Shown here: positions 1 to 56,953 of the stretch, piece by piece
How the letters are laid out: the number at the start of each line of letters is the position of its first letter
Position numbering within the stretch: position 1 is the stretch's first letter
NCBI GenBank assembly: GCA_963666345.1
Contig: OY762721.1
Location: 1,088,001-1,152,000, forward strand
Reading direction: 5' to 3'
Length of the DNA: 64,000 bases
DNA from: Desulfatiglandales bacterium
GTDB lineage: Bacteria > Desulfobacterota > DSM-4660 > Desulfatiglandales > Desulfatiglandaceae
Translations under genes and position numbers: made by a program
Notes under the pieces: model-generated
The model's input: the letters and a program-made list of their open reading frames with translations, nothing else
Databases searched by the model: none
Told to the model about the DNA's origin: nothing

Positions 1-95
1 CTGAACATGCCCGGCAGAAAAAAGGTTATCTCCCGCCCGAAGTGTTTCCAGGAAAGCTCTCCTGCCCTGTCAATCTTTTCAATTATCTCTTTCAT
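1..95 (-). CDS. 5' part of a probable radical SAM protein (LipS1-like), runs off the window start
   Basis: Not in the ORF track. Reading from ATG at 95 gives MKEIIEKIDRAGELSWKHFGREITFFLPGMF with no stop, overlapping the stop of the preceding gene. The N-terminus resembles LipS1-type radical SAM proteins and the context is lipoate genes. The CxxxCxxC motif would lie outside the window. Confidence 0.5.
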   Translation of the reverse strand, partial: MKEIIEKIDRAGELSWKHFGREITFFLPGMF

Positions 96-1146
96 AGTAC
101 CGTTTATATGAAACCCAGCATTTCCTTATAATGCCGTCGAAATTCTCCCAGTTTTCCTCCATCAGATTTCTTCTGGAACATGCCCTTTCGAGGGTTTCCC
201 CGAAAAGATCGGACCATTCGTCTTCATACCCGCCAAGGGCCTCAATATCCTTTGAAATTACCGCCTCGGCTGCCCATTTCCCCGCCATTCGACCACCCAT
301 GACCGCCTGGGACACCCCCGCGCCTGTAATCGGATGCGTGTGCCCGGCCGCATCGCCGGCAAGGATTACGTTGCCCTTGCGGATCTTTCTGGGGCTTTCA
401 GCAGGTATCCAGCCTGCCATGGTCCTGAAAGATCCCTCCCTGACCTTACCCTCACGGGAAAGTCTCTGCAGAAATTTCTTCAAAACCTCCTGGATAGAAG
501 GACTCCGTTGATCCCTCTTTTTCATTCCGATTCCTATATTTGCCGTATCACCCTTCGGGAAAACCCATGCATATCCCGCGAAAAAGTCCTTTTCAATGTA
601 GATCTCGGTAAAATCCATCTGCCTGCTCAGGGGAACCGAGTATTGTATACCTGGTATCAGATTCCTGTTTTCAGACCCGATCCATCTGCCCACGGTGGAA
701 TGGGGTCCGTCGGCACCGATCACCACCTTGGCATTTACTGATATGTTATCTCCCGCCTTGGTCCTGAGTAAAATTCCTTCCCTGCCCCTCGAAAGGGCGG
801 AAGTGGAAAGAAAAATCCTTGCACCCGCCTTTTCCGCCGCCTCCGCGATGCATTGATCCAGGATGTCCCTGTTGACCATAAAGCCGGGAGCGATGGTCTC
901 CTTGTCTTCCTTTCCCGATATAAATGTCTTCATGCCCCTTACGGGCTGGACCACGAAACCACGGCCAAGGCCGATTTCCCCCAGCAACATGCCCGGGATA
1001 TATTCGGCACACCTGACCGGGATTCCCACGGTTTTCCGGCGTTCCGCAACCAGGACCTTAAGCCCCTTTTCAGCGGCGGCAATTGCAGCCGATGACCCGG
1101 CGGGCCCGGCACCCACGATCAGGATATCACATTCTTCTTGCTTCAT
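79..1146 (-). CDS. Geranylgeranyl reductase family FAD-dependent oxidoreductase (LipT-like by context)
   Basis: GAGPAG Rossmann motif, GADG, GYAWVFPKG, LAGDAAG...GAG. Confidence 0.85.
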   Translation of the reverse strand: MKQEECDILIVGAGPAGSSAAIAAAEKGLKVLVAERRKTVGIPVRCAEYIPGMLLGEIGLGRGFVVQPVRGMKTFISGKEDKETIAPGFMVNRDILDQCIAEAAEKAGARIFLSTSALSRGREGILLRTKAGDNISVNAKVVIGADGPHSTVGRWIGSENRNLIPGIQYSVPLSRQMDFTEIYIEKDFFAGYAWVFPKGDTANIGIGMKKRDQRSPSIQEVLKKFLQRLSREGKVREGSFRTMAGWIPAESPRKIRKGNVILAGDAAGHTHPITGAGVSQAVMGGRMAGKWAAEAVISKDIEALGGYEDEWSDLFGETLERACSRRNLMEENWENFDGIIRKCWVSYKRYYERDN

Positions 1147-1166
1147 TTGAAAAACCGTTCCGGATA

Positions 1167-2738
1167 TCAGCGACTCCTCCTGACATCTGTGTTGAGGACC
1201 GTGTTCAACAGATCAAGGTTGACTTCGGTCTGGCTCGAGAAGGTCCCGGCGTAGGCGTCTTTCGCCTGGTCAAGTTCGTAACAGGTGGTGCTGTCGATAT
1301 CCAGGAGTATTCCGGGCAGCCCTGCCTTTTCAAAGTCGTCTACATGTTTGGTAAAAAAGGGCTGACAGCAGCAGCCTATATAGGAGGTCACCCCTCTCGC
1401 CTTCATCTTGAGCAATTCCTCCCACAGGTCTTCAAAGCTGACTATGCAGACGGTCTTCATCTTCTTTTTCCTGCCCATCTCCCATGCGGTCCCTATGGTG
1501 CACTTACCACAGGCTCGGCACCCCTTTTTATATCGCAATTCGCAGGTCGTAAGTTTGGAACAGTAGGGAAGGAGAAGGAGCGACGGTTCATCCTTGAGGA
1601 TTTCCTCGAATGTCCCGTTCGTAACCGATATCTTGTTGCAGTGCTCTATGGGGATATCATATTCTGATATGGCAATTTTCTGAAGTATCTGATCCACAGG
1701 CTTTAGAAAATCCTCAAAACCCATTCCTGGTATGGTGATTAATTTATTTTCAAAATACTCCCTGATGATACCATGGATCAGACCTCTGTCGAGACGCAGC
1801 CCTCGAAGGGCCGATTCCATATCAAAGAGGGCCCTGCTTGGAAAGGACAGAAAATCACCTGTAATGAAAATGTCCTTGATCCTCTTCTGGGCCTTATTTA
1901 TCGCCATGGTGAACCTCACCAGGCCCGAGTCGGCCTTATAGGCGGACTGAACCACCTCTTTTTTCTGATACCTGGGATTGACATGGTAGATCCATTCACT
2001 TGATCTGTAATAGTCAAGCTTTTCCCTGAAAAGATCCTTTTCCGATTCCGCAAGCCCCCCCGGTTCGAGTGTGATACCAAGCTCCTTTTCAAAACCCCCG
2101 GCAACGGCATCCTTTATCTCAGACAAAGAGGGGGTATGACCCAGCTCCCAGTTGAGGCACGTGACCCTTTCCTTGACGGAATCTATCTCTTTTGCCTTCA
2201 GCTTTTCCACCGGTATTCGAAGGCTCCTGAGCATCGTATCCACGTCAAAATCAACAAGCATGGTCCCCTGAAAAAGAAAGGCGTCGTCGGAGTCGGTGCC
2301 GCCCGTACCTGATATCTTCCTTCCGTTAACCTCTATGTCGTTTCTGGGCCTGAAATCGGACTCCACCCCGAGGATCCTGAGCGCCTCTACAACGGGGGCG
2401 CAGAGCCGTTTGAACAGTCTCAGATTCGGAAGTTTCACGTCAAAGAATGACTTGGAGCTGATGACCTCCCATCCAAGTTGATTCTCATCAAAAAACAGGG
2501 CACCGCCCCCTGTATTCCGCCTGTTTATCTCAATGTTATTGGCCATGCAGTAATCTACACGGACCTCCTCCTCCACCGACTGATGATAACCCACAAGTAC
2601 GCATCGCGGCGAAAACTGCAGGAAATGAATAGTATCAGGGGTCTCCCCCTTTCCCTTTAATTCCACCAGGGTTTCGTCAAGGGCCATATTTTCAGCCGCC
2701 GTCATTGGCGGTGTATCAAGGAGTCTCCATACCGTCAT
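1167..2738 (-). CDS. Lipoate-protein ligase A fused to a Cys-rich DUF116-like C-terminal domain
   Basis: NMALDE, RRNTGGGA, RPRNDI..GRKISG ligase motifs; C-terminal PYC..C..CRACGKC..GCCCQPF..TTC. Confidence 0.85.
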   Translation of the reverse strand: MTVWRLLDTPPMTAAENMALDETLVELKGKGETPDTIHFLQFSPRCVLVGYHQSVEEEVRVDYCMANNIEINRRNTGGGALFFDENQLGWEVISSKSFFDVKLPNLRLFKRLCAPVVEALRILGVESDFRPRNDIEVNGRKISGTGGTDSDDAFLFQGTMLVDFDVDTMLRSLRIPVEKLKAKEIDSVKERVTCLNWELGHTPSLSEIKDAVAGGFEKELGITLEPGGLAESEKDLFREKLDYYRSSEWIYHVNPRYQKKEVVQSAYKADSGLVRFTMAINKAQKRIKDIFITGDFLSFPSRALFDMESALRGLRLDRGLIHGIIREYFENKLITIPGMGFEDFLKPVDQILQKIAISEYDIPIEHCNKISVTNGTFEEILKDEPSLLLLPYCSKLTTCELRYKKGCRACGKCTIGTAWEMGRKKKMKTVCIVSFEDLWEELLKMKARGVTSYIGCCCQPFFTKHVDDFEKAGLPGILLDIDSTTCYELDQAKDAYAGTFSSQTEVNLDLLNTVLNTDVRRSR

Positions 2739-3802
2739 TTTTTCTCTTTAACCCCGAGTACCTCCAGCCAGTCTCTGATCTCGATTCCGGGGGTCTCCAC
2801 CTTTCTTTCTCCGTAAAATCTCTCAAGTGCTTCTTGCATATCACTTAAGCGCAATCCTTCAATATAAGACTCAAGCTGGCTTATACCACTCTCCGGGAAA
2901 CAAAAAAAATCGCCTGAGATATGAATCCCCGAAAGCCTTCCATCCGACAGCTGCATTTCGGCCCTTATAAGTCCGCCCATGGCCTTATGCATCCTCCGGA
3001 TGACATTGGTGCCCGCCCTTATTTTTATGTCCCTGCCATCGGGATACCTTCTTCCCCTCTGAAAAAGCCATTCATCGGCAAGCATACGGGATCTCAGTTT
3101 ATCCATAGTCTCTCTTAGCTCATCATCAATTCCGCACGGCTCCATCCGCCCCAAAAGCCTTTCAAACGATTGCCTCATCAGCCGGTTGAGCCTGGGTTCG
3201 GGCCATTCCGATGCACACTCTCCGAGTTCCCGCCTGATAGTGGACAGATTTTCCTTAAGTGTCTTTTGCACCTTGTCTCGGAATTTTTCATCAGGCACCC
3301 TCAACACCCGGCACATCGTCTCATAGTCGAAATCGACTATAAGATTTCCCACAAAGACTATACATTCGCCTATCTCGGAGGCGCCCGTGCCAGATATTTT
3401 CCTGGTACCCGCGATTATGTCGTTTATCGGCCTGTATTCGGCAGGTATTCCTATAGTTCGGTACACCTCTATTGCCGGGGCGAGAAATTTCTTGTAAAAG
3501 GCCTCTTTGTTGGCCGGAACAAGGGGACTTTTTCTTTTCAGTATCAGCTGGAAAAAAAGCTGATTTCCGTCAAGGTAAACCGCGCCTCCCCCGAGATCAC
3601 GCCTGAAAACAGGGATGCCCCTTTCTCTGCAGAAATCAAGATCCACCTCCTGCTCCAGATCCTGGTGAAATCCTATGCAGACATAATGAGAAGAAGGGGA
3701 AACAAGACAAAGCGCCTCTCTTTCCAGTCCGGCAAGGGCGTGGTAAATCAGTTGAGATTCATCCCAGGGAACCTTTCCGAGATTGTAGAGTTTCATGCCC
3801 AT
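2735..3802 (-). CDS. Lipoate-protein ligase A (sLplAB-like)
   Basis: RRDLGGGAVYLD, PINDI..RKISGTG, C-terminal ISGDFF domain. Confidence 0.85.
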   Translation of the reverse strand: MGMKLYNLGKVPWDESQLIYHALAGLEREALCLVSPSSHYVCIGFHQDLEQEVDLDFCRERGIPVFRRDLGGGAVYLDGNQLFFQLILKRKSPLVPANKEAFYKKFLAPAIEVYRTIGIPAEYRPINDIIAGTRKISGTGASEIGECIVFVGNLIVDFDYETMCRVLRVPDEKFRDKVQKTLKENLSTIRRELGECASEWPEPRLNRLMRQSFERLLGRMEPCGIDDELRETMDKLRSRMLADEWLFQRGRRYPDGRDIKIRAGTNVIRRMHKAMGGLIRAEMQLSDGRLSGIHISGDFFCFPESGISQLESYIEGLRLSDMQEALERFYGERKVETPGIEIRDWLEVLGVKEKK

Positions 3803-4126
3803 TTTCGTCCGACCTGACCTTCAGAAACAGATTTTCTATTATTAAACCAGAATTCGTCAAAAATACCGTTTGCCGGAAACCAGGCGCTTAAATCACATCT
3901 GTCGGTAATGTCTATAAAAAAACAAGGTACGGACAACACTGTTACCGGAACCCGGATGCTGTCCATACCTTGTTCTCTGTAATGATAATCAAATTTCTCC
4001 CGCCTCCGCCCAAATGGCGGAAGCACACCGCTTTGTTGACAAATGCGGAGGGGATGTATTCCGTCGAAACCACAGGATACTTCCAGGGCCGAATAATAAG
4101 ACCCGATTTTGCCGATAAACTTATAT

Positions 4127-5311
4127 CTAGTCTTTAAGGGCCTTTCTTACCAGCTGAGTTATATCCAAGACCTGAAGGGGAATCTTGTTCCTCCTTACAT
4201 ATGTCGCCATGGTCCTTACGCACTGCTGGCAAGAGGTTATAACCGCATCCGCCCCGGTGCTCAGCACCTCTTCTATCTTTCTTTTTCCCACTTCCGAGGA
4301 AAGACCCGCATCAATCATCTCGAGGTTACCTCCCCCTCCGCAACACTGGGAATTCTCCCTGTTATGCGGCAGTTCCACGAACTTGACACCGGGGATGGAG
4401 CCGATGACCTCTCTTGGTTCATCAAAAACCCTTGCCCCCCTTCCGAGATCACAGGGATCGTGATAGGTCACCGTCATGGAAAGCTCCTTCAGAGGAACCC
4501 TTCCTTCCTTCATCAATTTAAGAAGGTACTGGGTGGCATGAAACAGTTTGAACTCGGAAGGGTAGTACTCCCTCCACATCTGGTAGCAGGAGGGACAGGC
4601 AAAGAGTATTTCCCTTGCTCCTCTTTCCCTTACCGCCTCTACATTGTGGTCTACAAACTGCTTGAACATGTCCATGAGGCCCGCTCCCAGAAGCGGGAAG
4701 CCGCAGCACCATTCATCCTCACCCATAAGGGTCCATTCGACTTCACTGGCATCCAGTATCTCTGCAAGGGCTATCGGAATTTTCTGTACAAGCGGAAAAT
4801 ACGCGGAAGTACAACCGGTAAAATAGACGAGTTCCGCCTTGTCCCTGATATAACTGTCATCAGGTGGATCATCCATATCTTCGACCCAGTCGGCCCGTTC
4901 CTCGTTATCCTCATTAAATACGTTATAGCTCTTTTCCAGATTATCCCTGATCATGTCTATCTTATTGGGATAATTGTCGCTGTGAACAAGGTCCTGACGG
5001 AGTGAAAGCCACAGCTCTTTAAGAGGAATTCCCACCGGACAGATTTCCTGACAGTTTCCGCAAAGAGTGCACTTGAAAACAGTGTCGCTGAAATGCTTGG
5101 CCTGCTCCGGAGTCTCAGGCCTTGCCCCCAAAAGCCTTCCAAAGACGGTCCGTTGTTTCAGAAGCTGCCTTAGGCCGCCGATACGGAAGACAGCGGAAAG
5201 CTCACCATCTTCAGATGCGGATACCACAGGGCACACATCCGCGCACATCTGGCAGTTGGTGCAGGCCCCCATAGAAAGGAGCTGAGTTACACTGTAGTCC
5301 TTGATGCCCAT
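4127..5311 (-). CDS. HdrD/GlpC-like Fe-S oxidoreductase (2x[4Fe-4S] plus two CCG domains)
   Basis: CTNCQMCADVCP, CTLCGNCQEICP; FTGC..CCG..CPSC and YHDPC..CCGGG..SCQQC. Confidence 0.9.
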   Translation of the reverse strand: MGIKDYSVTQLLSMGACTNCQMCADVCPVVSASEDGELSAVFRIGGLRQLLKQRTVFGRLLGARPETPEQAKHFSDTVFKCTLCGNCQEICPVGIPLKELWLSLRQDLVHSDNYPNKIDMIRDNLEKSYNVFNEDNEERADWVEDMDDPPDDSYIRDKAELVYFTGCTSAYFPLVQKIPIALAEILDASEVEWTLMGEDEWCCGFPLLGAGLMDMFKQFVDHNVEAVRERGAREILFACPSCYQMWREYYPSEFKLFHATQYLLKLMKEGRVPLKELSMTVTYHDPCDLGRGARVFDEPREVIGSIPGVKFVELPHNRENSQCCGGGGNLEMIDAGLSSEVGKRKIEEVLSTGADAVITSCQQCVRTMATYVRRNKIPLQVLDITQLVRKALKD

Positions 5312-5312
5312 A

Positions 5313-5735
5313 TTATTCCTGCGCGTATTTCTCTAGATCCGCCGCAATCCACTTTTCGATAGCTTCAGCACCCTTGATGAGGTCTCCAAGTTCGGCCTTG
5401 TCGTCAGGTTTTACCTTGTACATCCAGCCTTCACCGTAACAGTCCTCGTTGATAAGACCGGGATTGATTTCAAGATCCTCATTTACTTCAACGAGTTCTC
5501 CGTTCACAGGGGCAAATGCCTTTCCCAGCCACTTGCCGGACTCCAGTTTCGCGAACTTCTTTCCCTTTTTGAGTCTCTTACCCTCGTCAGGCAGCTGTAC
5601 ATAAACTATATCTCCGGCCATTCTCTGGGCGAAATCATCCATTCCGAGTACGAGCAGATCCCCCTCTTCCCTGACCCAGAGATGATTTTCCTCATAGTAC
5701 AGATCTTCCGGCATATTGTATCCTTGTACTTCCAT
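5313..5735 (-). CDS. Glycine cleavage H-like lipoyl carrier protein (LbpA-like)
   Basis: HLWV..G..DFAQ..GDIVYV; lipoyl-Lys in ESGKW; APVNGE..VNE..P..INED.YGEGW. Confidence 0.9.
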   Translation of the reverse strand: MEVQGYNMPEDLYYEENHLWVREEGDLLVLGMDDFAQRMAGDIVYVQLPDEGKRLKKGKKFAKLESGKWLGKAFAPVNGELVEVNEDLEINPGLINEDCYGEGWMYKVKPDDKAELGDLIKGAEAIEKWIAADLEKYAQE

Positions 5736-5834
5736 TGTTGATCCTCCTCTTACATTTTTTTGATTAGGCAGTCATGATTCAAGAGCCATTATGCTGCCGT
5801 CATTATCCCGCCTCTCGGATTACCCGATCAAAGA

Positions 5835-6935
5835 TCAGTCCTCCTCACGCAGCAGGTTTATAAACTCTGTCGTTGTATATATCTTGAGCTTCTGTTTTCT
5901 CAGTTTAGCATTCGCAAGGTTATGCACGCAGGAGTTACATTCGGTAAGAAGGACCTCCGCCCCTGCCTCCTCGGCCTCCTCAAGCCTTCGCCTTGCCATT
6001 GCGATAGAGTTTGCCGCATAGGCTCCTCTTACACCACCTCCCGCCCCGCAGCAAAGGGCCTTTTCATGGTGATGTCTCATCTCCACGAAATTGGGGGCTA
6101 TCTTTCGTATCGTATCACGCGGCTCTTCATAGATACCGCAATGCCTTCCAAGATCGCAAGGATCATGGTAGGTCACTTTCTTATCGGTCTTGAATCCGAT
6201 ATCGATATCCTTCAGGAACTGGGAAAGATGAATGCATTTCACTCCCTTTTCCTTAAGTTCCGCATATTGTTTCTTGTTGTTGAATGTACGGGAACAATAC
6301 GGACAACCGGTTATGACGGTCTTTGCCCCGGTTGCCATTATAAGATCTATATTCGTCCTTACATGCTTCTCATTTATGGGATGCCCCACATCCTCGAGCA
6401 CACCGCTGCAGCAGACCTCATCTATAAGAGTGTAATCCACCTCAAGATAATCAAGGAGATCGAGTGTTGCCGTTGTCCTCTCGTCCTCTCTGTAGGAGCC
6501 TACGCATCCTATGAAAAAAACATATTCCGCTTTTCCGTTTCGCTCTCTCTCAAAATCTTCAGGTTCGTCCTCGGCATATATATTATCGTGCTCCTTAAGC
6601 ACCTTGTTCATTCCTGTAAATGCAGGATGACATGACCCTATATGCACCATGTCTTTTCTGGCCTGCTTTATAATCTCAGGCACTTCCACCCCTGATGGAC
6701 AGTTTTCGGCACAGGCCCCGCATGTTGTGCACTGAAAAAGGGTTTCAATCAGCTCGTCGTTCAGATCAAGAGTGCCGTCCATTACCTCCTTGAGAAGCAG
6801 CATCTTTCCCCTTGCGTTGTAGGCGGGCCTGAGAGTAGCCCCGAATACCGGACATACCGACTGGCAGAAGCCGCATCTTGAACATTGGAGTACCTGATCG
6901 CGAAATTTTCTTTCAAAATCATATTTGGCTTCCAT
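5835..6935 (-). CDS. GlcF-like Fe-S oxidoreductase subunit
   Basis: CSRCGFCQSVCP, CTTCGACAENCP, two CCG-type domains; start placed at MEAKY after GAGGG. Confidence 0.85.
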   Translation of the reverse strand: MEAKYDFERKFRDQVLQCSRCGFCQSVCPVFGATLRPAYNARGKMLLLKEVMDGTLDLNDELIETLFQCTTCGACAENCPSGVEVPEIIKQARKDMVHIGSCHPAFTGMNKVLKEHDNIYAEDEPEDFERERNGKAEYVFFIGCVGSYREDERTTATLDLLDYLEVDYTLIDEVCCSGVLEDVGHPINEKHVRTNIDLIMATGAKTVITGCPYCSRTFNNKKQYAELKEKGVKCIHLSQFLKDIDIGFKTDKKVTYHDPCDLGRHCGIYEEPRDTIRKIAPNFVEMRHHHEKALCCGAGGGVRGAYAANSIAMARRRLEEAEEAGAEVLLTECNSCVHNLANAKLRKQKLKIYTTTEFINLLREED

Positions 6936-6936
6936 G

Positions 6937-8319
6937 TTATCCCTCATCAAGCGCCATTTTCCCTGGATTAAGAATATTTTTGGGGTCAACCATCCTCTTG
7001 ATACTTCGCATTACATCCATGGCCACATCGTCATGTTCCCAGCACATGTAGCGTGCCTTCTGCATTCCTATGCCATGCTCTCCGGTCAGCGTGCCGCCCA
7101 GCTCAATCGCCATTCTGAAAAGATCATCGCTGGCAGCCCTTTTGGCCTTTACCTGATCCTGGTCATATCCGTCGTATACAAACTGTGGGTGAAGGTTTCC
7201 ATCCCCTGCGTGACCATATGTTGCTATCATTATGTTATGTTTTTTGGAGATCTCCTGTATGCCCTTCAATGCTTCGGCCAGTCTGCTCATAGGAACCGTG
7301 ACATCCTCAAGCACCTGGTGGGTCTTGAGCCTGGCAAGGACCGCGTAAGCCGACTTTCTGGCCGCCCACAGACCGGCTGCCTCATCCTTGGACTGGGCCT
7401 GTTTAATCTCTTTGGCGTTGTTGGCCTTGAAGACCTCCAGGACCTTTGACATCTGATAATCGGTTTCTTCCTGGGTATAACCGTCGGTCTCCGAAAGCAG
7501 AATGGCATCAACCTCCGGAAGGTTCAGGTCCGTGTTCTGGTTTATGGCCATTATGGCCTCTTTTCCAAGGATCTCAAGAACCGCGGGCAGGATGCCGCTG
7601 TGCATAACCTGGCTTACCGCCCTTCCGGCATCCTCCACATCATCGAAGGTACCGAGCGCGGTAGTGGAAGCGGTCGTCATCGGATTTATCTTAAGCGTAA
7701 TTTCCGTGACAACGCCAAGGGTACCTTCAGAGCCTACAAAGAGTTTAGTGAGGTCGTAGCCGGACACACTCTTGATGCACTGAGATCCTGTCTTCATGAT
7801 TCGTCCGTCAGGAAGGACAACCTGAAGGCCGAGCACATAATCCCTTGTTGTGCCGTATTTGGCCCCCCTTACCCCTCCCGCGTTGGTGGCGACATTTCCG
7901 CCCAGGGTACAAACCTGACTGCTTGCGGGATCAGGGGGGAAAAAGAACCCGTAGGGTGCTATCGCCCTTGCCAGATCGTCATATACCACACCAGGTTCAA
8001 CCACGACCAGACGATCTTCTATGCTTATCTTCTTGATCCTGTTCATGTGATTGAGATCAAGAACGATTCCTCCCTTAAGCGGTATGGCCATACCGGTAAG
8101 GCCAGTCGCCCCCCCCCTCGGTATTACGGGCATCTCTTCCTTGTTGGCCAGCTTCAGGATCTCCGAGACATGCTCGACCGTCTGGGGCCACACACCACAG
8201 GAAGGCCTGTGAGTGTATTCGCTTGCATCGTAAGAATAGGAGACCATATCTATCAGGCTGTCATTGTAGTTCTTCTCCCCTACAATCTCAATCAAGGCCT
8301 TTTTTAGTCTGTCTTCCAA
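6937..8319 (-). CDS. GlcD-like FAD-linked 2-hydroxy-acid oxidoreductase
   Basis: PRGGATGL, PPDPASS, GGNVATNAGG, GYDL..LFVGSEGTLG, GHAGDGNLH, GEHGIG, NPGK; TTG start after AAGGAGG. Confidence 0.9.
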   Translation of the reverse strand: MEDRLKKALIEIVGEKNYNDSLIDMVSYSYDASEYTHRPSCGVWPQTVEHVSEILKLANKEEMPVIPRGGATGLTGMAIPLKGGIVLDLNHMNRIKKISIEDRLVVVEPGVVYDDLARAIAPYGFFFPPDPASSQVCTLGGNVATNAGGVRGAKYGTTRDYVLGLQVVLPDGRIMKTGSQCIKSVSGYDLTKLFVGSEGTLGVVTEITLKINPMTTASTTALGTFDDVEDAGRAVSQVMHSGILPAVLEILGKEAIMAINQNTDLNLPEVDAILLSETDGYTQEETDYQMSKVLEVFKANNAKEIKQAQSKDEAAGLWAARKSAYAVLARLKTHQVLEDVTVPMSRLAEALKGIQEISKKHNIMIATYGHAGDGNLHPQFVYDGYDQDQVKAKRAASDDLFRMAIELGGTLTGEHGIGMQKARYMCWEHDDVAMDVMRSIKRMVDPKNILNPGKMALDEG

Positions 8320-8376
8320 GGTTTACCTCCTTAAACGTCCCCTGCAGAATGTAAACGGCAGAGGGTCAGCCCTTTA

Positions 8377-10200
8377 TCAGTCGTGATGATCCTCATTTGC
8401 CGCCGCACGCATAGAGAGCATGACAGGCCCCAAAATTATGTGAAACAGGCGACTGAAGGGCAGGTATGCAACAAATATCCCGGTAAGTATCGCATGCAGA
8501 TACCATATGAAGCCGTATATACCTGTCAACCATGTTCCGGAAAATACAAGGCTGATAATATAGCCTAAAAATGCATAGCCTGAGTTGTCCGGCCGGCCTG
8601 TCATGGCGATTCTTATTCCTTCCAGTATGAAGCCTACGACAACAATCCCTCCTATGAGACACAGTGCCAGTCTGTCCTGCCTGGGAAGGCCCCGAGCAGG
8701 ATTTACCTGTCTGAAAAGGCCGCGCACAAAGGCGGAGATTATCCCGGCAATTATCATCAGCCCGGTCAAATCATATAGGAATGCGGTAAGCGGATGGTTC
8801 TTGTATACCATATCCCAGATAAATGATGATTCCGAAGGATGCCATAGAGATCCCAGAAGGGCGAAAAGCCCCCAGAAAAACCTGAACACAAAGGGCAGGA
8901 AAATCAGGCTGTGTATCAACCAGCGTGTCGGAGACTGAAGATAGAGCCTCCTCTGGAGCAGCACATCAAAGAAGAGAGTCTTAATGATCTCCCCGATCTT
9001 TTTTGAAAAGATCGCACCAAACGCGCTTCCGAGAAGAACTCCCAGTTTGGAAAACGGCCCCAACCCCTCTTTGCCTTGAATGGAACCGGAAAGGAGCACT
9101 GAGAAAAACGCCGCCACACCGAATAAAAATACCAGAAGAGAAAGTATCGTAACAGTATCACCCGCGGAAAAGGTGGCGATATGGCAGGGCATGCACAAGA
9201 CCCCTTTTGCCGGCAGCACCATGGCTGCCGCACCCAGGGTATTGCCCGAACTGTGGCATCTTTTGCAGGAGTCATCGTCTTCAAATTCAATCATCTCATG
9301 AATAGAAAGTTTCGAACCGGTTGATGCAGGCCTTTCCCACACTATACGATTTGTTTTTTCATCCTTGACAGGAGTCACCCCTTTGAGATGGCATGCCTCG
9401 CAGGATACCCCGACATGCGCGTCATGGGCCATCTTTTCATCATGAGGATTATGGCAGCGGGTGCAGTCTCCCGGTTTCTGTTCATGGTGATAGTATTGAG
9501 CGGCATTGGGGTGACAGGTCGTGCAGGCCATTGAGGCGTGAGGCGTTTTTTCGTAATCCTTGAGATCTATAAGAGGAAGCGCCTTTGAGGTTATCTTCTG
9601 CGCCTCCTTTTCTCCCTCGCCGTGGCAGTTGGTACAGAGAGAGACGACCTGTTTTTTGCCCTCCGCAGTAACATGGTCGACCTCTCGGTGGCATGTCATG
9701 CAGGCCTCATCGTCTTCAGAAAGCACCGGGAGTTTCGATCGCTCTTCGTGGCAGGCCCCGCACTGGAGGTGACGCGGCCTGGACGGGTCGAATTCGCCCG
9801 CTGCGTTTTCATCCCGACTCTGAAGGTAGTGGGGCTTGTGACAACGTATGCAGAGGCCGTACTTTTCCTTATCCTTTACCTGTCTTGAGCCATGGGTACC
9901 CGATTCAAGGTCATCCATTATATAGTCATGACAATCCAGACATTGTTGGGCTTCGAAAAAATCGACCTTGCCCTTTTTTACATTCGAGGGATCAGGGTGA
10001 ACGGATTCATCCGAGATGGCATAATGACATTCCTGGCAACCTATCTGGCCATGTGCGGAACTGTGGAATCTGGCTTCATCAAGCACCCAGGAGGCTTCGG
10101 CACCCATAGTCGTAATGAAGACCAACCCGGCAACAATCGCTCCTATTGCACCTCTTTTCATAGCTGACTTTAAAATCCTCATAGTTAATCGAAAAAGCAT
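8377..10200 (-). CDS. Multiheme cytochrome c (11 CxxCH) fused to a NarI/TmcC-like cytochrome b membrane domain
   Basis: Signal-peptide-like N-terminus ending AEA; 11 CxxCH motifs counted; C-terminal hydrophobic helices with WLIH, GFILEGIR, YLH, PFSRLFH. Exact start uncertain. Confidence 0.85.
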   Translation of the reverse strand: MLFRLTMRILKSAMKRGAIGAIVAGLVFITTMGAEASWVLDEARFHSSAHGQIGCQECHYAISDESVHPDPSNVKKGKVDFFEAQQCLDCHDYIMDDLESGTHGSRQVKDKEKYGLCIRCHKPHYLQSRDENAAGEFDPSRPRHLQCGACHEERSKLPVLSEDDEACMTCHREVDHVTAEGKKQVVSLCTNCHGEGEKEAQKITSKALPLIDLKDYEKTPHASMACTTCHPNAAQYYHHEQKPGDCTRCHNPHDEKMAHDAHVGVSCEACHLKGVTPVKDEKTNRIVWERPASTGSKLSIHEMIEFEDDDSCKRCHSSGNTLGAAAMVLPAKGVLCMPCHIATFSAGDTVTILSLLVFLFGVAAFFSVLLSGSIQGKEGLGPFSKLGVLLGSAFGAIFSKKIGEIIKTLFFDVLLQRRLYLQSPTRWLIHSLIFLPFVFRFFWGLFALLGSLWHPSESSFIWDMVYKNHPLTAFLYDLTGLMIIAGIISAFVRGLFRQVNPARGLPRQDRLALCLIGGIVVVGFILEGIRIAMTGRPDNSGYAFLGYIISLVFSGTWLTGIYGFIWYLHAILTGIFVAYLPFSRLFHIILGPVMLSMRAAANEDHHD

Positions 10201-10368
10201 ATCTTAATCACGATGTTACGGTGGAAAATCATTACAGGAATAGTCACTTCATCTAAAGAGATCAGTCAATAGCAGATAGCAAATGAGGTGTCAAGAAGCA
10301 AAAGAGCATGCTTAATCCTCACTTTTCAAAATGAAAGCGGGCAATAAGAGCCCATCCCAAGTTTTGTA

Positions 10369-10384
10369 AGCAAGGCGTGTGCCA
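10369..10384 (-). promoter_or_regulatory. sigma54 (-24/-12) promoter of the cytochrome-lipoate operon
   Basis: Minus strand reads TGGCAC-ACGCC-TTGCT. Confidence 0.8.
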
Positions 10385-10691
10385 TTATATATGAAAGGTC
10401 CATGACCGGGTAACTGTCTGATTAATTAAGACTGAAATGACATGTCTGATTGGGAAAGGCCGGGTTGGTCGAAAAAACTGTCAATTTTTTTTACACTATG
10501 TAAAAAGGCAGGGCATTCTATCTGAACCGCCGAGCATGAGGATCATGGAACATTTAACCTCTTCCGAGACAGGTTGGCTTATTTCATAATAGAATATCTG
10601 GTTATATGCGTCAGTTTGGGAAAACGGCTCTACGTTAATGATTCGGGTAAAACAGCTGCCTTGCAGAAATCGAAAATTTCCTGATGGAGAA

Positions 10692-10759
10692 TTCAGCCGT
10701 CTGTATTCAGCCAAATGACCTGTTTTTTTTATTTCTTTTGCCGACAGCCGATAGCTGAG
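10692..10759. repeat. Intergenic repeat family B, copy 1
   Basis: TTCAGCC..TTCAGC..AATGACCTGTTT..TCTTTTGC..ACAGCCGATAGC.GAG, recurring at 26191-26257. Confidence 0.7.
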
Positions 10760-10792
10760 TGCGAATCCGGCCCTGTTGACCGGGATTTACTT

Positions 10793-11587
10793 CTAACCCT
10801 TTGATCCAAGACGCAATCCGCCATGGATGAAAAAGACCTCGCCGGCCATAGCCTCGTTTCGGAAAAGTTCCGCAACAAGGCTTGCGACCTCATCAGGTTC
10901 CACAAGCCTCTTTATCGGAACATCCTCCAGTATGCGATCAAGGGCCTTCTGATTCATGCCTTTAACCATGGCAGTGCCCACATACCCGGGAGCTATCGCA
11001 ACGCATCTCAGCCTGCTGGAAAGACCCTTTCTGAAAAATTCAGAGGTTATCACCTTCGGTATTACAGACATTGCAGCCTTTGAAGAAGCATAGTTTATCT
11101 GACCCGCCGTGCCCAAAGATCCGGTTGAAGAAATAAGGCATATCAGCCCCTTGGAACCGGAATTTACCATCTGTTCGCTACATTCCCTTATTGTAAGGAA
11201 TACCCCGCTCAGATTTATATCCAGGACCGATTGGAACTGCTCAAGAGACATCTTTTTCCTTACCTTGCCGGATTCCCTGTCGACAGACAACATAAGGCCG
11301 TCCTTTATTATACCCGCACAGGGAATGACAAGGTTTATGGAACCGAATTTTTCAATAGCAAGTAAGGCAAGGGCCTCGTTATCCTTTTCCCTTGTTACGT
11401 CGCATACCATGGTAACGACCTTACCGCCTGCCTCTTTTACTTCTTCCTCAACGCGATTAAGGCTTTCAGGATCAAGATCAGCCAGAACAAGATTTCCGCC
11501 GTGAGAAGCCCATTTTTTGGCCACGGCCTCTCCTATTCCGCTGCCCCCGCCTGTTATTACAGCCACTGAGCCTGCAATTTCCAGCAT
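10793..11587 (-). CDS. Short-chain dehydrogenase/reductase (3-oxoacyl reductase / 3-hydroxyacyl-CoA dehydrogenase-like)
   Basis: TGGGSGIG, YASSK, IAPGYV. Confidence 0.85.
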   Translation of the reverse strand: MLEIAGSVAVITGGGSGIGEAVAKKWASHGGNLVLADLDPESLNRVEEEVKEAGGKVVTMVCDVTREKDNEALALLAIEKFGSINLVIPCAGIIKDGLMLSVDRESGKVRKKMSLEQFQSVLDINLSGVFLTIRECSEQMVNSGSKGLICLISSTGSLGTAGQINYASSKAAMSVIPKVITSEFFRKGLSSRLRCVAIAPGYVGTAMVKGMNQKALDRILEDVPIKRLVEPDEVASLVAELFRNEAMAGEVFFIHGGLRLGSKG

Positions 11588-11643
11588 TACCCTATACCCC
11601 CCCACCTGAAAAATGGATTTTTTGCATCCGGGACAAAAACGTC

Positions 11644-13059
11644 TCAGTCCTTCTTGATCATCTCATCGTACAATCCCCGCTTGTCAACAACCCGTTTGGC
11701 CTTGAACTCTGTCCTTTCAAGGGTCCCCGGTTTCATCATCTGGACAACCGTCCTCAGGCCTCTGGCCTTGAGCCGGATCTCAAGCCTTCTGGCCAGTTCA
11801 GGCACAACTGCCTCGTCAACGTCAGGGTTGTATTCACTCTGGACTATGAGTTCATCCATGGTCTTTTCCCTGGTTATGACGATACGAAATTCATCCCCCA
11901 TACCCTCAATGCCTCTTATTGCATCTTCGATAGCGCTTGGATAGACATTTTCCCCCCTCACCACAAACATGTCATCCGCCCTGCCGTATATGCCTCTGGG
12001 CAACCTCGGATAGGTTCTTCCACAGGGGCATTCATCATTCACCCACATGGAAATATCACCCGCCATAAAACGGATCATGGGCTGTGAATCCCGTTCAAGA
12101 TGAGTATATACAGTAACGCCTTCCTCACCGTAGGGAACCCTCTTTAAGGTCCTAGGATCCACCAGTTCGGCATAGACCATATCCTGCCACAGGTGCATGC
12201 CCTTCCTGTATTCGCATTCGCTGTTACTCATCCAAGGGGCCATCTCCGCTGTAGAGCCCGAATCTATACATATCCCGCCGTATATATCTTCTATCCTCTT
12301 TTTTGTGGAAGGCACACCTGCTCCAGGTTCACCGGAAAAAAATAGTATTCGGAAATTGAAATCCTTTCTCGGGTCAAGCCCCTTTTCCTTTGCCTTCTCA
12401 GCCAGGTAGAGGCTGTATGAAGGCGTACCGTAGAATACCGTAGGCCTGACGTCTTTCATCCATTCAAGCGCTCTGTCCGACTGACCTGCCACACCCGCGC
12501 CGAAAGGAAAGGCTGTGGCACCGAGTCTCTCAGCCCCTGCAAGAGCCCCCCAGCTGCCCCAATAAAGGCTGAAAAACGAGCCGACAAAAACAGTGTCCTC
12601 CTGGCGCACCCCGAACCCCCACATGATCCTTGCGTGAGCCTCTGCAATGCGTGCCATATCTCCCTTGCTTATGCCGAAGGCTGTCGGTTTCCCGGTCGTG
12701 CCTGAAGTACCCTGCACCCTGGCCAGATCTTGAGCGGAAACGCATAAATTACTTCCAAAGGGCGGATATTTTGCCTGATCCTCACGGATTTCCTCTTTTT
12801 TGACCACAGGAATTTTTTCAAAATCCTCAAGGCTTTTTATATCCTCCGGCCTGAGACCTGCCTTATCCCACTTATTTCTGTAAAACTGGGAACTTCTGTA
12901 TGCATAATCCAAGACATTTTTGAGTTTTGGAAGGATCACCTTCTCTTCTCGCTCTTCAGGATCCATGGTTTCAAGCTCTTTGTTCCAGTAATAAGAGTCA
13001 GATGAGGGTATATAGGCGCGATCATTCTGAGGGGGCCATATGCTTTTCATATACATCAC
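11644..13059 (-). CDS. Phenylacetate-CoA ligase family protein, resembling 2-hydroxyisobutyrate-CoA ligase
   Basis: GTSGTTGKPTAFG, AHARIMWG, SLYWGSWGALAGAERL, SGEPG, CGRTYPRLP, GRADDM..RGENVYPS. Confidence 0.85.
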   Translation of the reverse strand: MMYMKSIWPPQNDRAYIPSSDSYYWNKELETMDPEEREEKVILPKLKNVLDYAYRSSQFYRNKWDKAGLRPEDIKSLEDFEKIPVVKKEEIREDQAKYPPFGSNLCVSAQDLARVQGTSGTTGKPTAFGISKGDMARIAEAHARIMWGFGVRQEDTVFVGSFFSLYWGSWGALAGAERLGATAFPFGAGVAGQSDRALEWMKDVRPTVFYGTPSYSLYLAEKAKEKGLDPRKDFNFRILFFSGEPGAGVPSTKKRIEDIYGGICIDSGSTAEMAPWMSNSECEYRKGMHLWQDMVYAELVDPRTLKRVPYGEEGVTVYTHLERDSQPMIRFMAGDISMWVNDECPCGRTYPRLPRGIYGRADDMFVVRGENVYPSAIEDAIRGIEGMGDEFRIVITREKTMDELIVQSEYNPDVDEAVVPELARRLEIRLKARGLRTVVQMMKPGTLERTEFKAKRVVDKRGLYDEMIKKD

Positions 13060-13136
13060 TCCTTTGTGTTTATGTTATTCCCATTTTTTCATTAATGTGC
13101 CCTATCTTCCGGCAATTTATGCTGTTACCGGGGCGC

Positions 13137-13562
13137 TCAACCCGTCTTCTCAGCCACGAGATTCTTTATAGAGGAAACGATATCCTCACTCGATGCCCCG
13201 GGTGTAAAAACCCCGTCAAATCCCATATCATAGAGGCTATTCCCATCATCAGGAGCAAATACACCTCCGATAATAAAAACCATCTCTTCCCTTAGGCCTT
13301 TCTTTTGAGCCTCTTCAATAAGGGGCTTTCCAAGTGTAAGATGTGCACCGCCGAGAGAACTTACTCCGACGACATCGGCATCTTCCTGAATAGCCGAGCT
13401 TATTATCTCACCTGGAAGCGCATTCCCTATGTAAACGACCTCCATTCCCGCATTGCTCAACTCCTTTGCTACGGTAATAACACCTCTGTTGTGAACATCC
13501 AGACCCAGTTTGGAAAGGATTACTTTGATTTTCTTGACCATAAGGGAATTTTTCTCCTCCAT
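13137..13562 (-). CDS. Acyl-CoA mutase cobalamin-binding small subunit
   Basis: KLGLDVHNRG (DxHxxG), GVSSL, IIGG. Confidence 0.9.
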   Translation of the reverse strand: MEEKNSLMVKKIKVILSKLGLDVHNRGVITVAKELSNAGMEVVYIGNALPGEIISSAIQEDADVVGVSSLGGAHLTLGKPLIEEAQKKGLREEMVFIIGGVFAPDDGNSLYDMGFDGVFTPGASSEDIVSSIKNLVAEKTG

Positions 13563-13591
13563 GTTGTTAAATTATGCGTTAGTAAGGCTTG

Positions 13592-21734: not shown

Positions 21735-21771
21735 CTTTCCGCTCCTTTCCTGCGAATTTATACCTGTTGTG

Positions 21772-22956
21772 TTAGTAATTCTCAATCTCAAAGATGGCGG
21801 CAGCCCCCATTCCAAAGCCGATACACATGGAAACGAGTCCCCACCTGAGACCCCTGTCCTGCATCTCGTATATGAGTTGAGTGGTCAGCTTTGCCCCGGT
21901 ACAACCCAGGGGGTGCCCCAATGCAATGGCCCCGCCGTTTACATTGGTAATCTCCTCGTCTATTCCAAGTTCTCTGATGCAGTAAATGGCCTGGGCAGCG
22001 AACGCCTCGTTAAGTTCGATAAGCTCCATATCCTCAAGACGCATGCCTGCCAGCTTCAGCACCTTGGGTATGGCCACCCTGGGACCCACCCCCATGTACT
22101 CAGGTTCACACCCTTCGACAGCATGATACCTGAATGTGGCCATCGGCTTAAGACCCAGTTCTTTTGCCTTTTCCTTTGACATCAATACCACCCCTGCCGC
22201 GGCATCGCTTGTCTGCGAGGAATTCCCCGCCGTCACGCTCCCGTTCGGTTTAAACGCCGGCCTGATAACGGAGATGCTCTCCTTTGTGGTTCCCGGGCGC
22301 ACACCCTCGTCCGTATCAAAGACGACCTCTTCGAATTCGAATCTGCCGTTCGGAAGCTTTTTCTGCTTTTTCACCGTAAGAGGTACTATCTGGCTCTTGA
22401 ATCTTCCCGCCTTTATCGCGGCCTCGGCCCGCTGCTGGCTTTTAGCTCCGAACTCGTCCTGCTCATCTCTTCCTATGCCGAATCTTTCAGCCACGTTTTC
22501 AGCCGTAAGCCCCATTCCGCTGAAGGCACCCGGGCGCATATCCACAAGGGCGGGATTGGGATACATCATGCTTCCTCCCATAGGTATCTGACTCATGTTT
22601 TCCACACCACCCGCGACCACGATATCGGAAAAACCGCACATGATCTTCTCAGCCCCTATGGCTATCGACTGAAGTCCTGATGAGCAGAACCTGTTCACCG
22701 TCATTCCGGGGACACGATCGGGCCACCCCATGGACATTACCAGCACCCGGCCCAGGTTGAGCCCCTGGGTCGCCTCCGGAAAAGTGCACCCGATTATGAC
22801 ATCGTCGATCAGGCCGGGATCAAGATCACCTGCCCTTTTGATAAGATCCCCCAGTACCGCACAACCCATATGTTCCGGGCGGGTATCCTTTAGAATTCCA
22901 CGAGGCGCCTTTCCGACCGCCGTTCTGCAGGCAGCAACAACCACGGCTTCTCTCAT
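21772..22956 (-). CDS. fadA: Acetyl-CoA C-acyltransferase (thiolase)
   Basis: [27 protein letters not shown]. Confidence 0.93.
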
Positions 22957-23012
22957 GATATTTTCCTCCATAGATAGGTTATGATAAAAGCGACCTTTTC
23001 ACCGGATCGGGC

Positions 23013-25445: not shown

Positions 25446-25647
25446 TAACAAACCTCCTTCCTGTAATAATCTGTGTGGTCCAAGGCACATCTATTTCATT
25501 ATGGGAACCCTGCTCCTCTTATCCTGGCTGAATAATACCCCTGTCCGAACAGATCGCTATAAATACCTGATATTTCAGATGGCTAAAATCATTGAACTGC
25601 TTCGCTTCGCACCGCTCCTTTGGGTCGGGCAGGAAATTTTTCAAAAC

Positions 25648-35991: not shown

Positions 35992-36092
35992 TATCTGTCT
36001 CCTCACAAAAATTTTGTTCCTCATTTATCAGCTGCCAATGGCAATGTCAAAAGATAGGGGAAAAGTCTTACAGGCCGGATCGGATCCAGGGC

Positions 36093-50414: not shown

Positions 50415-50430
50415 TGGCACGTTCATTGCT
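50415..50430 (+). promoter_or_regulatory. sigma54 promoter of amtB-glnB-glnD
   Basis: TGGCAC-GTTCA-TTGCT. Confidence 0.85.

Positions 50431-56476: not shown

Positions 56477-56953
<477 letters not shown>

Follow-up and report, generated by a model that had tools for sequence, protein, structure and literature searches.

What would a sulfite-reducing bacterium do with a lipoyl carrier protein whose gene is lodged between the genes of two CCG-domain iron-sulfur proteins? The question is raised by positions 1 to 10,384 of a 64,000-nucleotide stretch of a Desulfatiglandales bacterium (assembly GCA_963666345.1, contig OY762721.1, positions 1,088,001 to 1,152,000 of the forward strand), called here the window. 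Five redox genes, coding for a multihaem membrane cytochrome fusion, a GlcD-like flavoprotein, a GlcF-like iron-sulfur protein, a GcvH-family carrier and an HdrD-like protein, are followed there by genes of lipoate assembly. We privilege, with a probability of about 0.55, the hypothesis that the five redox genes encode a transmembrane thiol:disulfide oxidoreductase similar to Tmc and HdrDE, the substrate of which would be the lipoyl group of the dedicated cytoplasmic carrier. The parts, their motifs, the separate clade of the carrier and the conserved adjacency of the genes are observed; from these we infer lipoylation of the carrier by the products of the adjacent Lpl, LipT and LipS genes, its binding to the CCG proteins and all electron flow.

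All genes of the module are on the minus strand and are presented in the 5' to 3' order along the genes. The first-pass annotation, made from the sequence, had the order right, with every gene it named present at its place on that strand. Lengths are in amino acids (aa), and FAD and SAM denote flavin adenine dinucleotide and S-adenosylmethionine.

10369..10384, minus strand: sigma54-type -24/-12 element TGGCACacgccTTGCT, matching at 11 of 11 specified positions
8377..10200, minus strand: membrane cytochrome fusion, 607 aa, with 11 CXXCH motifs and a NarI-like C-terminal membrane domain
6937..8319, minus strand: GlcD-like FAD-linked 2-hydroxy-acid dehydrogenase subunit, 460 aa (FAD_binding_4, E 2e-43; FAD-oxidase_C, E 1e-66)
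5835..6989, minus strand: GlcF-like iron-sulfur protein with two 4Fe-4S motifs and two complete CCG motifs (CCG, E 1.9e-29, two stretches)
5313..5735, minus strand: putative GcvH-family lipoyl carrier, 140 aa (GCV_H, PF01597, E 1e-39), with ESGKW at K68
4127..5311, minus strand: HdrD-like CCG protein, 394 aa, with two CxxCxxCxxxCP and two complete CCG motifs
3912..3978, minus strand: terminator-like hairpin with U7 after it, in the interval from the HdrD-like stop to the start of the first ligase
2735..3802, minus strand: lipoate:protein ligase paralogue 1 (Lpl1), 355 aa (LplA-B_cat, E 1.7e-34), with an LplB-like C-terminal domain and RKISGTG
1167..2738, minus strand: lipoate:protein ligase paralogue 2 fused to DUF116 (Lpl2-DUF116), 523 aa (LplA-B_cat, E 1.9e-49; DUF116, E 5.4e-11, residues 376-488)
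79..1146, minus strand: LipT-like FAD oxidoreductase of the geranylgeranyl-reductase family, 355 aa (TIGR02032, 210.7 bits, cut-off 158.8)
1..95, minus strand: first 32 codons of a LipS1-like radical SAM lipoyl synthase gene that leaves the window (whole gene, L009:9142-10095)
L009:8029-9129, outside the window, after LipS1 in the same order: LipS2-like gene (231.2 bits, cut-off 270)
L009:4239-7373, outside the window, after a 655-nt gap from LipS2: tripartite ATP-independent periplasmic (TRAP) transporter DctP-DctQ-DctM, with Pfam matches for DctP, DctQ and DctM

The simplest answer would be that the carrier is an ordinary extra GcvH serving a glycine cleavage (gcv) system encoded elsewhere. 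The genome of the window, a single contig that is 96.7% complete, contains a complete gcvT-gcvH-gcvPA-gcvPB cluster with its own H protein at C1:4.064-4.069 Mb, 3 Mb from the carrier. Genes for LipB (149 bits, cut-off 83.55) and LipA (376 bits, cut-off 310) directly adjoin this cluster and an E3-like gene flanks it on the side opposite LipB/LipA, the whole set covering C1:4.062-4.071 Mb. The sole GDC-P and GCV_T matches of the genome are found at the same cluster, the E3-like tblastn matches are all outside the window, and a search of the whole genome for the 2-oxoacid dehydrogenase E2 (PF00198) gave no match; the window is thus devoid of gcvP, gcvT and E2, as the first-pass annotation had read it. 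Since each known lipoate-dependent enzyme of the genome has its own H protein and maturation genes, the carrier is not needed for any of them.

Sequence comparison separates the carrier from the gcv-linked H proteins as well. It shares 38% identity with the gcv-linked H protein of its own genome, which has ESVKA in place of the ESGKW that is invariant in carriers. The lipoyl-lysine K68, conserved in 41/41 carriers, aligns with the lysine of ESVKA. The 26 residues around K68 include 9 K/R versus 3 D/E in the carrier and 2 versus 4 in the canonical GcvH of the genome, and the isoelectric point, calculated from sequence, has a median of 4.60 in carriers (4.48 for the protein of this locus) versus 4.17-4.25 in the GcvH groups. 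With the carrier as query and one genome per species, 35 loci were found at 64-89% identity, after which identity drops to 50% or less. They come from Desulfobacteraceae and Desulfobacterales metagenome-assembled genomes (MAGs), strain NaphS2, a Desulfatiglandales MAG, Desulfarculaceae MAGs and Dethiosulfatarculus sandiegensis, the last with two copies. A maximum-likelihood tree of 103 rows (LG+G4, 140 columns, quick search, many inner forks unresolved, no LbpA sequences included) places the 41 carriers on one branch with a support of 98 in the Shimodaira-Hasegawa-like approximate likelihood-ratio test, and groups six canonical Desulfobacterales GcvH with 45 GcvH of other phyla (51 rows, support 100). 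On the GcvH side, the phylogeny proposed earlier as a check therefore sets the carrier clade apart from canonical GcvH.

Neither gcvP nor gcvT was found beside the carrier in any of 55 related loci, probed solely with the proteins of this locus and with Pfam on 65 neighbouring open reading frames (ORFs). Retention of the lipoyl-lysine and scores above the NCBIfam gcvH cut-offs (NF002270, 142.2 versus 117; TIGR00527, 116.6 versus 115.85, barely passed) speak for service in glycine cleavage, but the 38% identity, the separate clade, the motif difference and the lack of gcvP and gcvT neighbours make this role hardly credible. A conventional gcv encoded elsewhere, which would have undone the original proposal had it used this carrier, turned out to be a separate complete cluster with its own H, LipB and LipA. 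We rejected the conventional role on the grounds of the separate clade, the gcv cluster elsewhere and ESGKW versus ESVKA; judged by its sequence, the carrier is not a glycine-cleavage H protein but belongs to a separate conserved clade.

The genome encodes further GcvH-like proteins elsewhere. Five related genomes have 6-7 GCV_H matches each, which fall into the same orthologous groups. One, para3 (L010:7585-10242, plus strand; G000:C1:1375585-1378242), has QSRKW at the lysine motif and is accompanied by an LplA-type ligase of its own and by a radical SAM gene that is LipS2-like (208 bits, cut-off 270); it passes the gcvH cut-offs and is kept as an orthologous group at 76-79% identity in five related genomes. 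Another, para4 (L011:8533-9507, minus strand; G000:C1:2612533-2613507), is a 324-aa protein with a cysteine-rich N-terminal half and a C-terminal GCV_H domain that has Gly at the lipoyl-lysine position. Genes for a sigma54 response regulator and a PAS/GAF histidine kinase lie upstream of its own, and it is 56-67% identical in related genomes, where further tandem copies occur.

If the carrier does not serve glycine cleavage, which enzyme might use it? The gene of the HdrD-like protein starts 1 nt after the carrier stop. This protein has two sets of 4Fe-4S cysteines (C17/20/23/27 and C81/84/87/91) and two sets of CCG cysteines (C167, C202-C203, C239, C242; C287, C323-C324, C361, C364), and across 30 sequences none of its 18 cysteines varies, the two CC pairs and the 10 CCG cysteines among them. 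The GlcF-like protein is built in the same way, with two 4Fe-4S motifs and two CCG domains, so that the thiol/disulfide chemistry first proposed for the CCG proteins finds the catalytic Hdr-type cysteine pattern kept in both. For both the best NCBIfam match is TfrB (NF004898, thiol:fumarate reductase subunit), at 154 bits for the GlcF-like and 182.5 bits for the HdrD-like protein, under the cut-off of 385. The HdrD-like protein also stays under the equivalog cut-offs of DsrK (97.3 versus 400), TmcB (88.2 versus 735) and HmcF (69.3 versus 750). A true DsrK is encoded elsewhere in the genome (732 bits) and DsrA scores 574 bits, over its cut-off; it follows that the host carries out dissimilatory sulfite reduction and that its DsrK is another protein than the HdrD-like one.

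The closest solved chain to the HdrD-like protein is mycobacterial EtfD (9ojn_A, E 2.8e-43 over residues 69-392). This resemblance lends support to a pure relay of EtfD/EMO type, in which electrons would pass from the GlcD flavoprotein to the GlcF-like protein, then to the HdrD-like and NarI-like parts and finally to menaquinone or the c haems, with the CCG clusters as a wire and the carrier as a bystander, a regulator or the partner of another enzyme. Pairs of GlcD and a CCG protein do stand alone in related loci (e.g., L055, L058, L067 and L078), and on standard potentials the transfer from hydroxy acid to quinone would be easy. EtfD is described as non-catalytic for two reasons: one CCG motif, which has a linear 3Fe-4S cluster, carries Thr539 in place of its second Cys, and the other cluster is capped by His583 (PMC13083937). 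The HMMER alignment to 9ojn_A sets C202-C203 of the HdrD-like protein opposite C538-T539 and C239-P-S241-C242 opposite C581-P-H583-C584, and S241 is at least 90% conserved in the 30 HdrD-like orthologues. By the criterion of that source the HdrD-like protein classifies, from its sequence, as the open, catalytic Hdr type: it keeps the Hdr-type CC pair and has no capping His. The relay also leaves without a role in it a carrier gene that is placed between two CCG genes and almost touches one of them, and we consider it unlikely.

The membrane partner in the hypothesis of a lipoyl-linked oxidoreductase is the cytochrome fusion. A hydrophobic signal or anchor segment (residues 18-40) precedes the 11 CXXCH motifs, found between residues 55 and 336, and residues 352 to 589 then hold five or six hydrophobic helices. 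The number of CXXCH motifs is 11 in 32 and 10 in 3 of the 35 fusion orthologues, the haem cysteines are all at least 92% conserved, and H430, H569 and H587 of the membrane part are invariant. The NarI match of this membrane part is weak on its own (PF02665, 19.5-21 bits, cut-off 22.9). Among the orthologous C-terminal domains, 31/31 match PF02665 at E<=0.01 (best 1.2e-9), and their profile hits only NarI chains in the PDB (1y5l_C, E 8e-4), with H...PFSRLxHI aligned. NarI, a dihaem cytochrome b, has four His as haem ligands, in its helices II and V; the fusion family shows three invariant ones. Genus g66 of the same order (G157-G167) has a shorter cytochrome/NarI form of about 450 aa directly upstream of a carrier orthologue (e.g., G161:C2:2588025-2589595); this form is 39-43% identical to the fusion over residues 215-604 and the adjoining carrier orthologue is 61-68% identical to the carrier.

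Are these genes kept together? With the fusion as query, 164/209 genomes of the GTDB order of the window gave matches at E<=1e-10, about 70 of them full-length at 45-56% identity. Twenty fusion-seeded loci were compared: in 15 the set of five redox genes is complete and follows the order of this locus, 2 hold just the fusion, carrier and HdrD-like genes, 2 are without an intact GlcD and 1 is at a contig edge. Loci seeded with the carrier (L071-L105) are unbiased as to neighbours, and counts for them refer to loci with enough sequence. The frequencies of the neighbours were as follows.

HdrD-like as the next gene after the carrier: 21/28 carrier-seeded loci
Fusion within 5.5 kb upstream of the carrier: 15/19 carrier-seeded loci
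GlcD and GlcF-like upstream of the carrier: 8/19 carrier-seeded loci
Ligase within 6 kb downstream of the carrier: 15/26 carrier-seeded loci
LipS1, LipS2 and LipT: 10/21, 8/21 and 7/21 carrier-seeded loci

Linkage of the carrier to HdrD-like, fusion and ligase/LipS genes is thus kept across several orders of Desulfobacterota, which answers the call for a synteny search in favour of the module. The minimal conserved unit is fusion, carrier and HdrD-like gene; the GlcD/GlcF-like and lipoate genes are frequent without being constant. The carrier (E<=1e-45) occurs in 102 and the fusion (E<=1e-40) in 105 of the 209 genomes of the order; both are found in 91, the carrier alone in 11, the fusion alone in 14 and neither in 93. 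This tally was made by hand on genomes that are in many cases incomplete and, being related, not independent, and it includes some shorter forms of 36-43% identity. Persistence of the cytochrome-carrier-HdrD trio without GlcD/GlcF, the fusion being the gene immediately upstream of the carrier in 11/43 loci, and the joint presence of carrier and fusion in 91 genomes versus 25 with only one also argue against a relay of EtfD type in which the carrier would be dispensable.

In two loci of other lineages the trio comes directly after E1beta, E2, LipB and E3 genes (L082:1632-8245 and L093:2069-7626), at the end of what looks like a 2-oxoacid or acetoin-type dehydrogenase operon, with a Zn-dependent alcohol dehydrogenase and LipA also present in L082 and a BKACE-family gene in L093. 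Such a position is as expected if the trio services lipoyl groups. With GlcD/GlcF variably present and E1-E2-E3 found elsewhere, hydroxy-acid oxidation appears as one of several possible partners. Carrier orthologues are also found near a sulfatase-family gene, a LysR gene and a conserved Pfam-less protein of 425-463 aa (L071:2900-7318, L092:3674-8111, L084:8656-11734 and L096:8588-12366); the genome of the window has the sulfatase/Pfam-less pair at C1:2774528-2780362, without a carrier.

The second block of genes bears on how the carrier may be lipoylated. Its genes are of the Lpl/LipT/LipS1/LipS2 type, in line with their initial reading as the lipoate genes of the carrier. Both ligases have PF21948 and PF10437 and the RKISGTG lysine motif, and the two paralogues are 34% identical to each other. 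E. coli LplA is not among the 9 PDB matches of Lpl1 at E<=1e-5. The LipT-like gene sits between a ligase gene and LipS1/LipS2, as lipT does in the published clusters (PMC10332631). The fused Lpl2-DUF116 form recurs in 8 related loci at 96% coverage or more, always with LipT/LipS1/LipS2, which suggests a role of DUF116 in lipoate assembly; its DUF116 tail is cysteine-rich, with motifs such as CxxxxxC, CxxCxxC and CCC. Ligases of sLpl type prefer basic acceptors, according to preprint 10.64898/2026.10.01.755906, and the strongly basic patch of residues around the carrier lysine would fit the preference reported there. The window codes for another LplA-type ligase at 34924-36024 (minus strand; 366 aa, LplA-B_cat E 2e-51, LplB-like end), which stands alone with no adjoining carrier gene.

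A carrier that adjoins a full lipoate assembly set could also be a scaffold on which lipoate is built before it is passed to other proteins, the redox genes then being mere neighbours. The GcvH of Bacillus subtilis is such a lipoate relay scaffold, and one of the two different ligase paralogues could, speculatively, act as a transferase. The genome has no E2 acceptor, however, and its canonical GcvH has its own LipB and LipA alongside. The carrier is moreover linked more tightly to the HdrD-like gene (21/28) and the fusion (15/19) than to LipS1 (10/21) and LipS2 (8/21), and many loci hold the redox genes without nearby LipS genes. A role in relay lipoylation is, on this evidence, improbable.

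The remaining two redox proteins would connect the carrier to organic acids. The GlcD-like protein scores 474.7 bits for glcD (TIGR00387, cut-off 567.9) and the GlcF-like protein 71 for NF008434 (cut-off 333). The GlcF-like protein probably starts at the ATG at 6947 or 6935, since its orthologues align only from residue 10-19 onward. In the mechanism that we propose, the carrier would be lipoylated by the neighbouring Lpl1, Lpl2-DUF116, LipT, LipS1 and LipS2. The HdrD-like protein would bind the NarI-like cytochrome b domain from the cytoplasmic side and interconvert lipoyl disulfide and dihydrolipoyl at paired non-cubane clusters, with haem b as the path by which electrons reach or leave menaquinone and the 11 c haems of the periplasm. 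The GlcD/GlcF-like pair would be a second CCG enzyme acting on the same carrier, after the manner of the thiol:fumarate reductase TfrAB, and may couple it to a 2-hydroxy-acid/2-oxo-acid couple, the acid being probably imported by the adjacent TRAP transporter.

In which direction would the electrons run? The potentials are about -290 mV for lipoamide, about -190 mV for pyruvate/lactate and about -75 mV for menaquinone. On these standard values the transfer from dihydrolipoyl to quinone, haems or a 2-oxo acid would be downhill and that from a 2-hydroxy acid to the lipoyl group uphill. The direction from 2-hydroxy acid to lipoamide put forward in the first-pass annotation, which is uphill by about 100 mV, was for this reason not adopted. 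A TfrAB-plus-Hdr logic, or the oxidation of dihydrolipoyl generated by other enzymes such as the E1/E2/E3 of L082 and L093, would fit at least as well as the hydroxy-acid direction.

The lipoyl group might also carry or accept sulfane sulfur, in which case the HdrD-like protein would reduce or oxidise lipoyl-bound sulfur species and not a plain disulfide. Sulfane-sulfur roles have been proposed for LbpA with sHdr and for DsrC trisulfide with DsrK. The host, with its DsrA of 574 bits, is a dissimilatory sulfite reducer, a short contig has DsrE-like and DsrH-like sulfur-relay genes directly after a carrier orthologue (L079:805-1550, plus strand), and the set of Lpl, LipT, LipS1 and LipS2 was first found with sHdr-LbpA (PMC10332631). 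No sulfur transferase (DsrE, TusA or rhodanese) is, however, among the genes scanned at the locus, and its usual neighbours are carbon-metabolism enzymes and transporters (GlcD/GlcF, E1-E2-E3 and TRAP). The carrier also does not have the two cysteines of LbpA. The hallmark of LbpA is an N-/C-terminal cysteine pair, according to preprint 10.64898/2026.10.01.755906; 37/41 carriers have a single Cys, at position 99, and none has a pair at the two termini, so that the carrier was not assigned to LbpA by this hallmark. Handling of sulfur is, in our opinion, quite unlikely.

Is the module transcribed as one unit? The redox block is tight, with gaps of 57, about 0, 99 and 1 nt from fusion to HdrD-like, as is the lipoate block, where overlaps or gaps do not exceed 20 nt from Lpl1 to LipS2; 324 nt separate the two. 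This interval has a hairpin at 3978-3912 that is of the 22-bp class, has a folding energy of -37.4 kcal/mol (z -8.69, with 0/200 shuffles folding as well) and is followed by U7; a consensus scan missed it. A sigma70-like site is found at 3860-3831 (minus strand). A 77-aa ORF at 3793-4026 has no family match and overlies the hairpin, and was taken as spurious. An Rfam scan of positions 1-11700 gave no RNA family at E<=0.1.

The sigma54 element starts 184 nt upstream of the fusion ATG. It is one of 2 perfect matches in the 64-kb window, the other being at amtB-glnK-glnD; amtB-glnK is a classical sigma54 target. Perfect and one-mismatch elements at 50415-50430 (plus strand) and 56919-56934 (minus strand), before amtB-glnK-glnD and glnK-amtB, offer a useful positive control for the prediction of sigma54 sites in this genome. 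The motif is found at 9/11 positions or more in 2/34 orthologous upstream regions, both of them the same NaphS2 DNA, and the nearest sigma54 activator in the window is at 58895-60649, about 48 kb off. From the original view of a single sigma54 operon the perfect element stands, but the single operon is not supported, since the hairpin splits the blocks and the element is not conserved in orthologues.

One study of marine sediment provides 4 metatranscriptome runs whose contigs match the window at 95-99% identity; between 4037 and 10049 these contigs include portions of each of the five redox genes. They bridge HdrD-like and carrier (5088-5375 and 5156-5799), GlcF-like and GlcD (6794-7015 and 6965-7404) and GlcD and fusion (8110-8493). 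These are assembled contigs from libraries in which DNA may be present, and a contig across two genes is no proof of one transcript. Contigs of the four runs do not cover 1-2730 (in all runs), most lipoate genes, 8971-9360 or 10141-10530, holes that carry no inference. The contigs hint weakly at expression of the redox block by a close relative in sediment.

A number of points weigh against a lipoyl-dependent oxidoreductase. Lipoylation, binding and turnover are deduced from sequence and gene context. Transfer from a hydroxy acid to the lipoyl group would be unfavourable, so that the GlcDF link may work in either sense in the cell. The carrier is, by sequence score alone, not barred from being a working H protein. 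The HdrD-like gene is not the next one in 7/28 carrier-seeded loci, where the carrier is beside sulfatase-family and Pfam-less genes or DsrE/DsrH-like genes. LipS1 (213.7 versus 230) and LipS2 (231.2 versus 270) fall short of their cut-offs, each still the best match by far, and the ligases are under the TIGR00545 cut-off of 280, with 127 for Lpl1 and 175 for Lpl2. Given the terminator-like hairpin between the HdrD-like stop and the Lpl1 start, the redox and lipoate genes are probably separate transcripts or joined only by read-through. EtfD, to which the HdrD-like protein is closest among solved structures, receives its electrons from a flavoprotein and performs no thiol chemistry, which means that CCG domains alone do not prove disulfide reduction.

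Prediction of a complex between carrier and HdrD-like protein, suggested earlier as a check, passed its mark and gives weak support. The score was 0.57 (runs 0.54-0.58) against 0.00 for the best of 3 controls; at least 93% of contacts are common to the runs, and the predicted local distance difference test value of the partner is at least 88. The mark is reached by 116/157 solved complexes and 2/215 mismatched pairs, and scores that pass it at or under 0.60 are those of only 18/157 solved complexes and of both passing mismatches. This counts as a weak pass, without a reported interface, and belongs with the points that temper the hypothesis.

How does the module compare with known systems? HdrDE of cytochrome-containing methanogens and the Tmc, Hmc and DsrMK(JOP) complexes likewise combine a cytoplasmic HdrD-type protein with a NarI-like membrane cytochrome b, and periplasmic c-type haems are present in Tmc, Hmc and Dsr. 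The module differs from all of these in having 11 c-haem sites and the cytochrome b in one polypeptide, and from HdrDE and DsrMK in that its adjoining gene codes for a lipoyl carrier instead of a link to coenzyme M/coenzyme B (CoM/CoB) chemistry or DsrC. In TfrAB of Methanothermobacter, a flavoprotein and a CCG iron-sulfur subunit together link an organic acid to a thiol/disulfide couple by electron exchange, a pairing that the module shares; the flavoprotein of the module is of GlcD type, not of fumarate-reductase type, and the thiol proposed for it is protein-bound lipoate. A GlcD-like FAD subunit followed by a CCG iron-sulfur subunit is likewise found in the GlcDEF D-lactate/glycolate dehydrogenases, and the Desulfovibrio Dld-II type is a D-lactate dehydrogenase of the GlcD plus CCG kind. 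Unlike GlcDEF, the module has no GlcE, and its GlcD/GlcF-like pair is embedded between the cytochrome gene and the lipoyl carrier gene.

The sHdr-LbpA systems have a GcvH-family lipoyl protein distinct from the gcv H protein, together with Hdr-like CCG proteins and their own Lpl/LipT/LipS1/LipS2 (PMC10332631; 10.64898/2026.10.01.755906). They also show a basic surface near the acceptor lysine, to which the basic residues around K68 of the carrier may correspond. In the module, found in a sulfite reducer, the partner is membrane-bound with a multihaem cytochrome; the locus showed neither a soluble complex of sHdrA/B/C type nor sulfur transferases, no genome-wide shdr search having been made. 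The EtfD/EMO system (M. smegmatis EtfD, PDB 9ojn; PMC13083937) has the same domain order as the HdrD-like protein and a NarI-like haem b membrane part. This part is fused in EtfD and a separate protein in the module, where both CC pairs are intact and Ser occupies the His position; no ETF genes (electron-transfer flavoprotein) were seen at the locus.

The module fails, by its sequences, the curated or published criteria of DsrK, TmcB, HmcF, EtfD and LbpA. Full-text searching, with subscription journals and supplementary tables S2-S5 of PMC10332631 outside its coverage, found no literature description of it. The module is thus conserved and not described in the literature found, with a function that we deduce from sequence comparison. 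Upstream of it, at 10793-15349 (minus strand), are genes for an SDR, a PaaK-like CoA ligase, a B12-binding subunit and a methylmalonyl-CoA-mutase-like large subunit, and a beta-oxidation set (acyl-CoA dehydrogenase, thiolase and hydroxyacyl-CoA dehydrogenase/hydratase) is encoded at 19950-25490.

The placement of a carrier, with lipoate genes of its own, between two CCG enzymes and a multihaem cytochrome suggests a way of moving electrons via a protein-bound dithiol. We extend this tentatively, and at somewhat less than even odds, to a lipoyl-protein respiration, in which a transmembrane complex of Tmc/HdrDE type would be served by a lipoylated, free-standing H-type protein as its dedicated and diffusible dithiol/disulfide substrate. 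If so, sulfate reducers and their relatives would have a low-potential cytoplasmic shuttle that plugs dehydrogenases into periplasmic multihaem cytochromes and the quinone pool, and energy conservation by a redox loop would be possible. The dehydrogenases served would be hydroxy-acid enzymes of GlcDF type here and E1-E2-E3 oxo-acid enzymes elsewhere. A respiratory role would be added to the functions of lipoate in 2-oxoacid dehydrogenases, glycine cleavage and sHdr, which would explain the four or more GcvH paralogues and several lipoylation systems of these genomes, without a 2-oxoacid dehydrogenase in this one. Annotation pipelines will label the carrier 'glycine cleavage system protein H', as it passes the cut-offs, and so hide the module. 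HdrD-like CCG proteins are common in anaerobes, and to our knowledge their substrates beyond the methanogens (CoM-S-S-CoB) and DsrK (DsrC) are mostly unknown. A candidate substrate encoded 1 nt from the enzyme gene, with its own cofactor-assembly genes, makes this question directly testable, and would, if correct, name the substrate of bacterial HdrD-like proteins for one large family.

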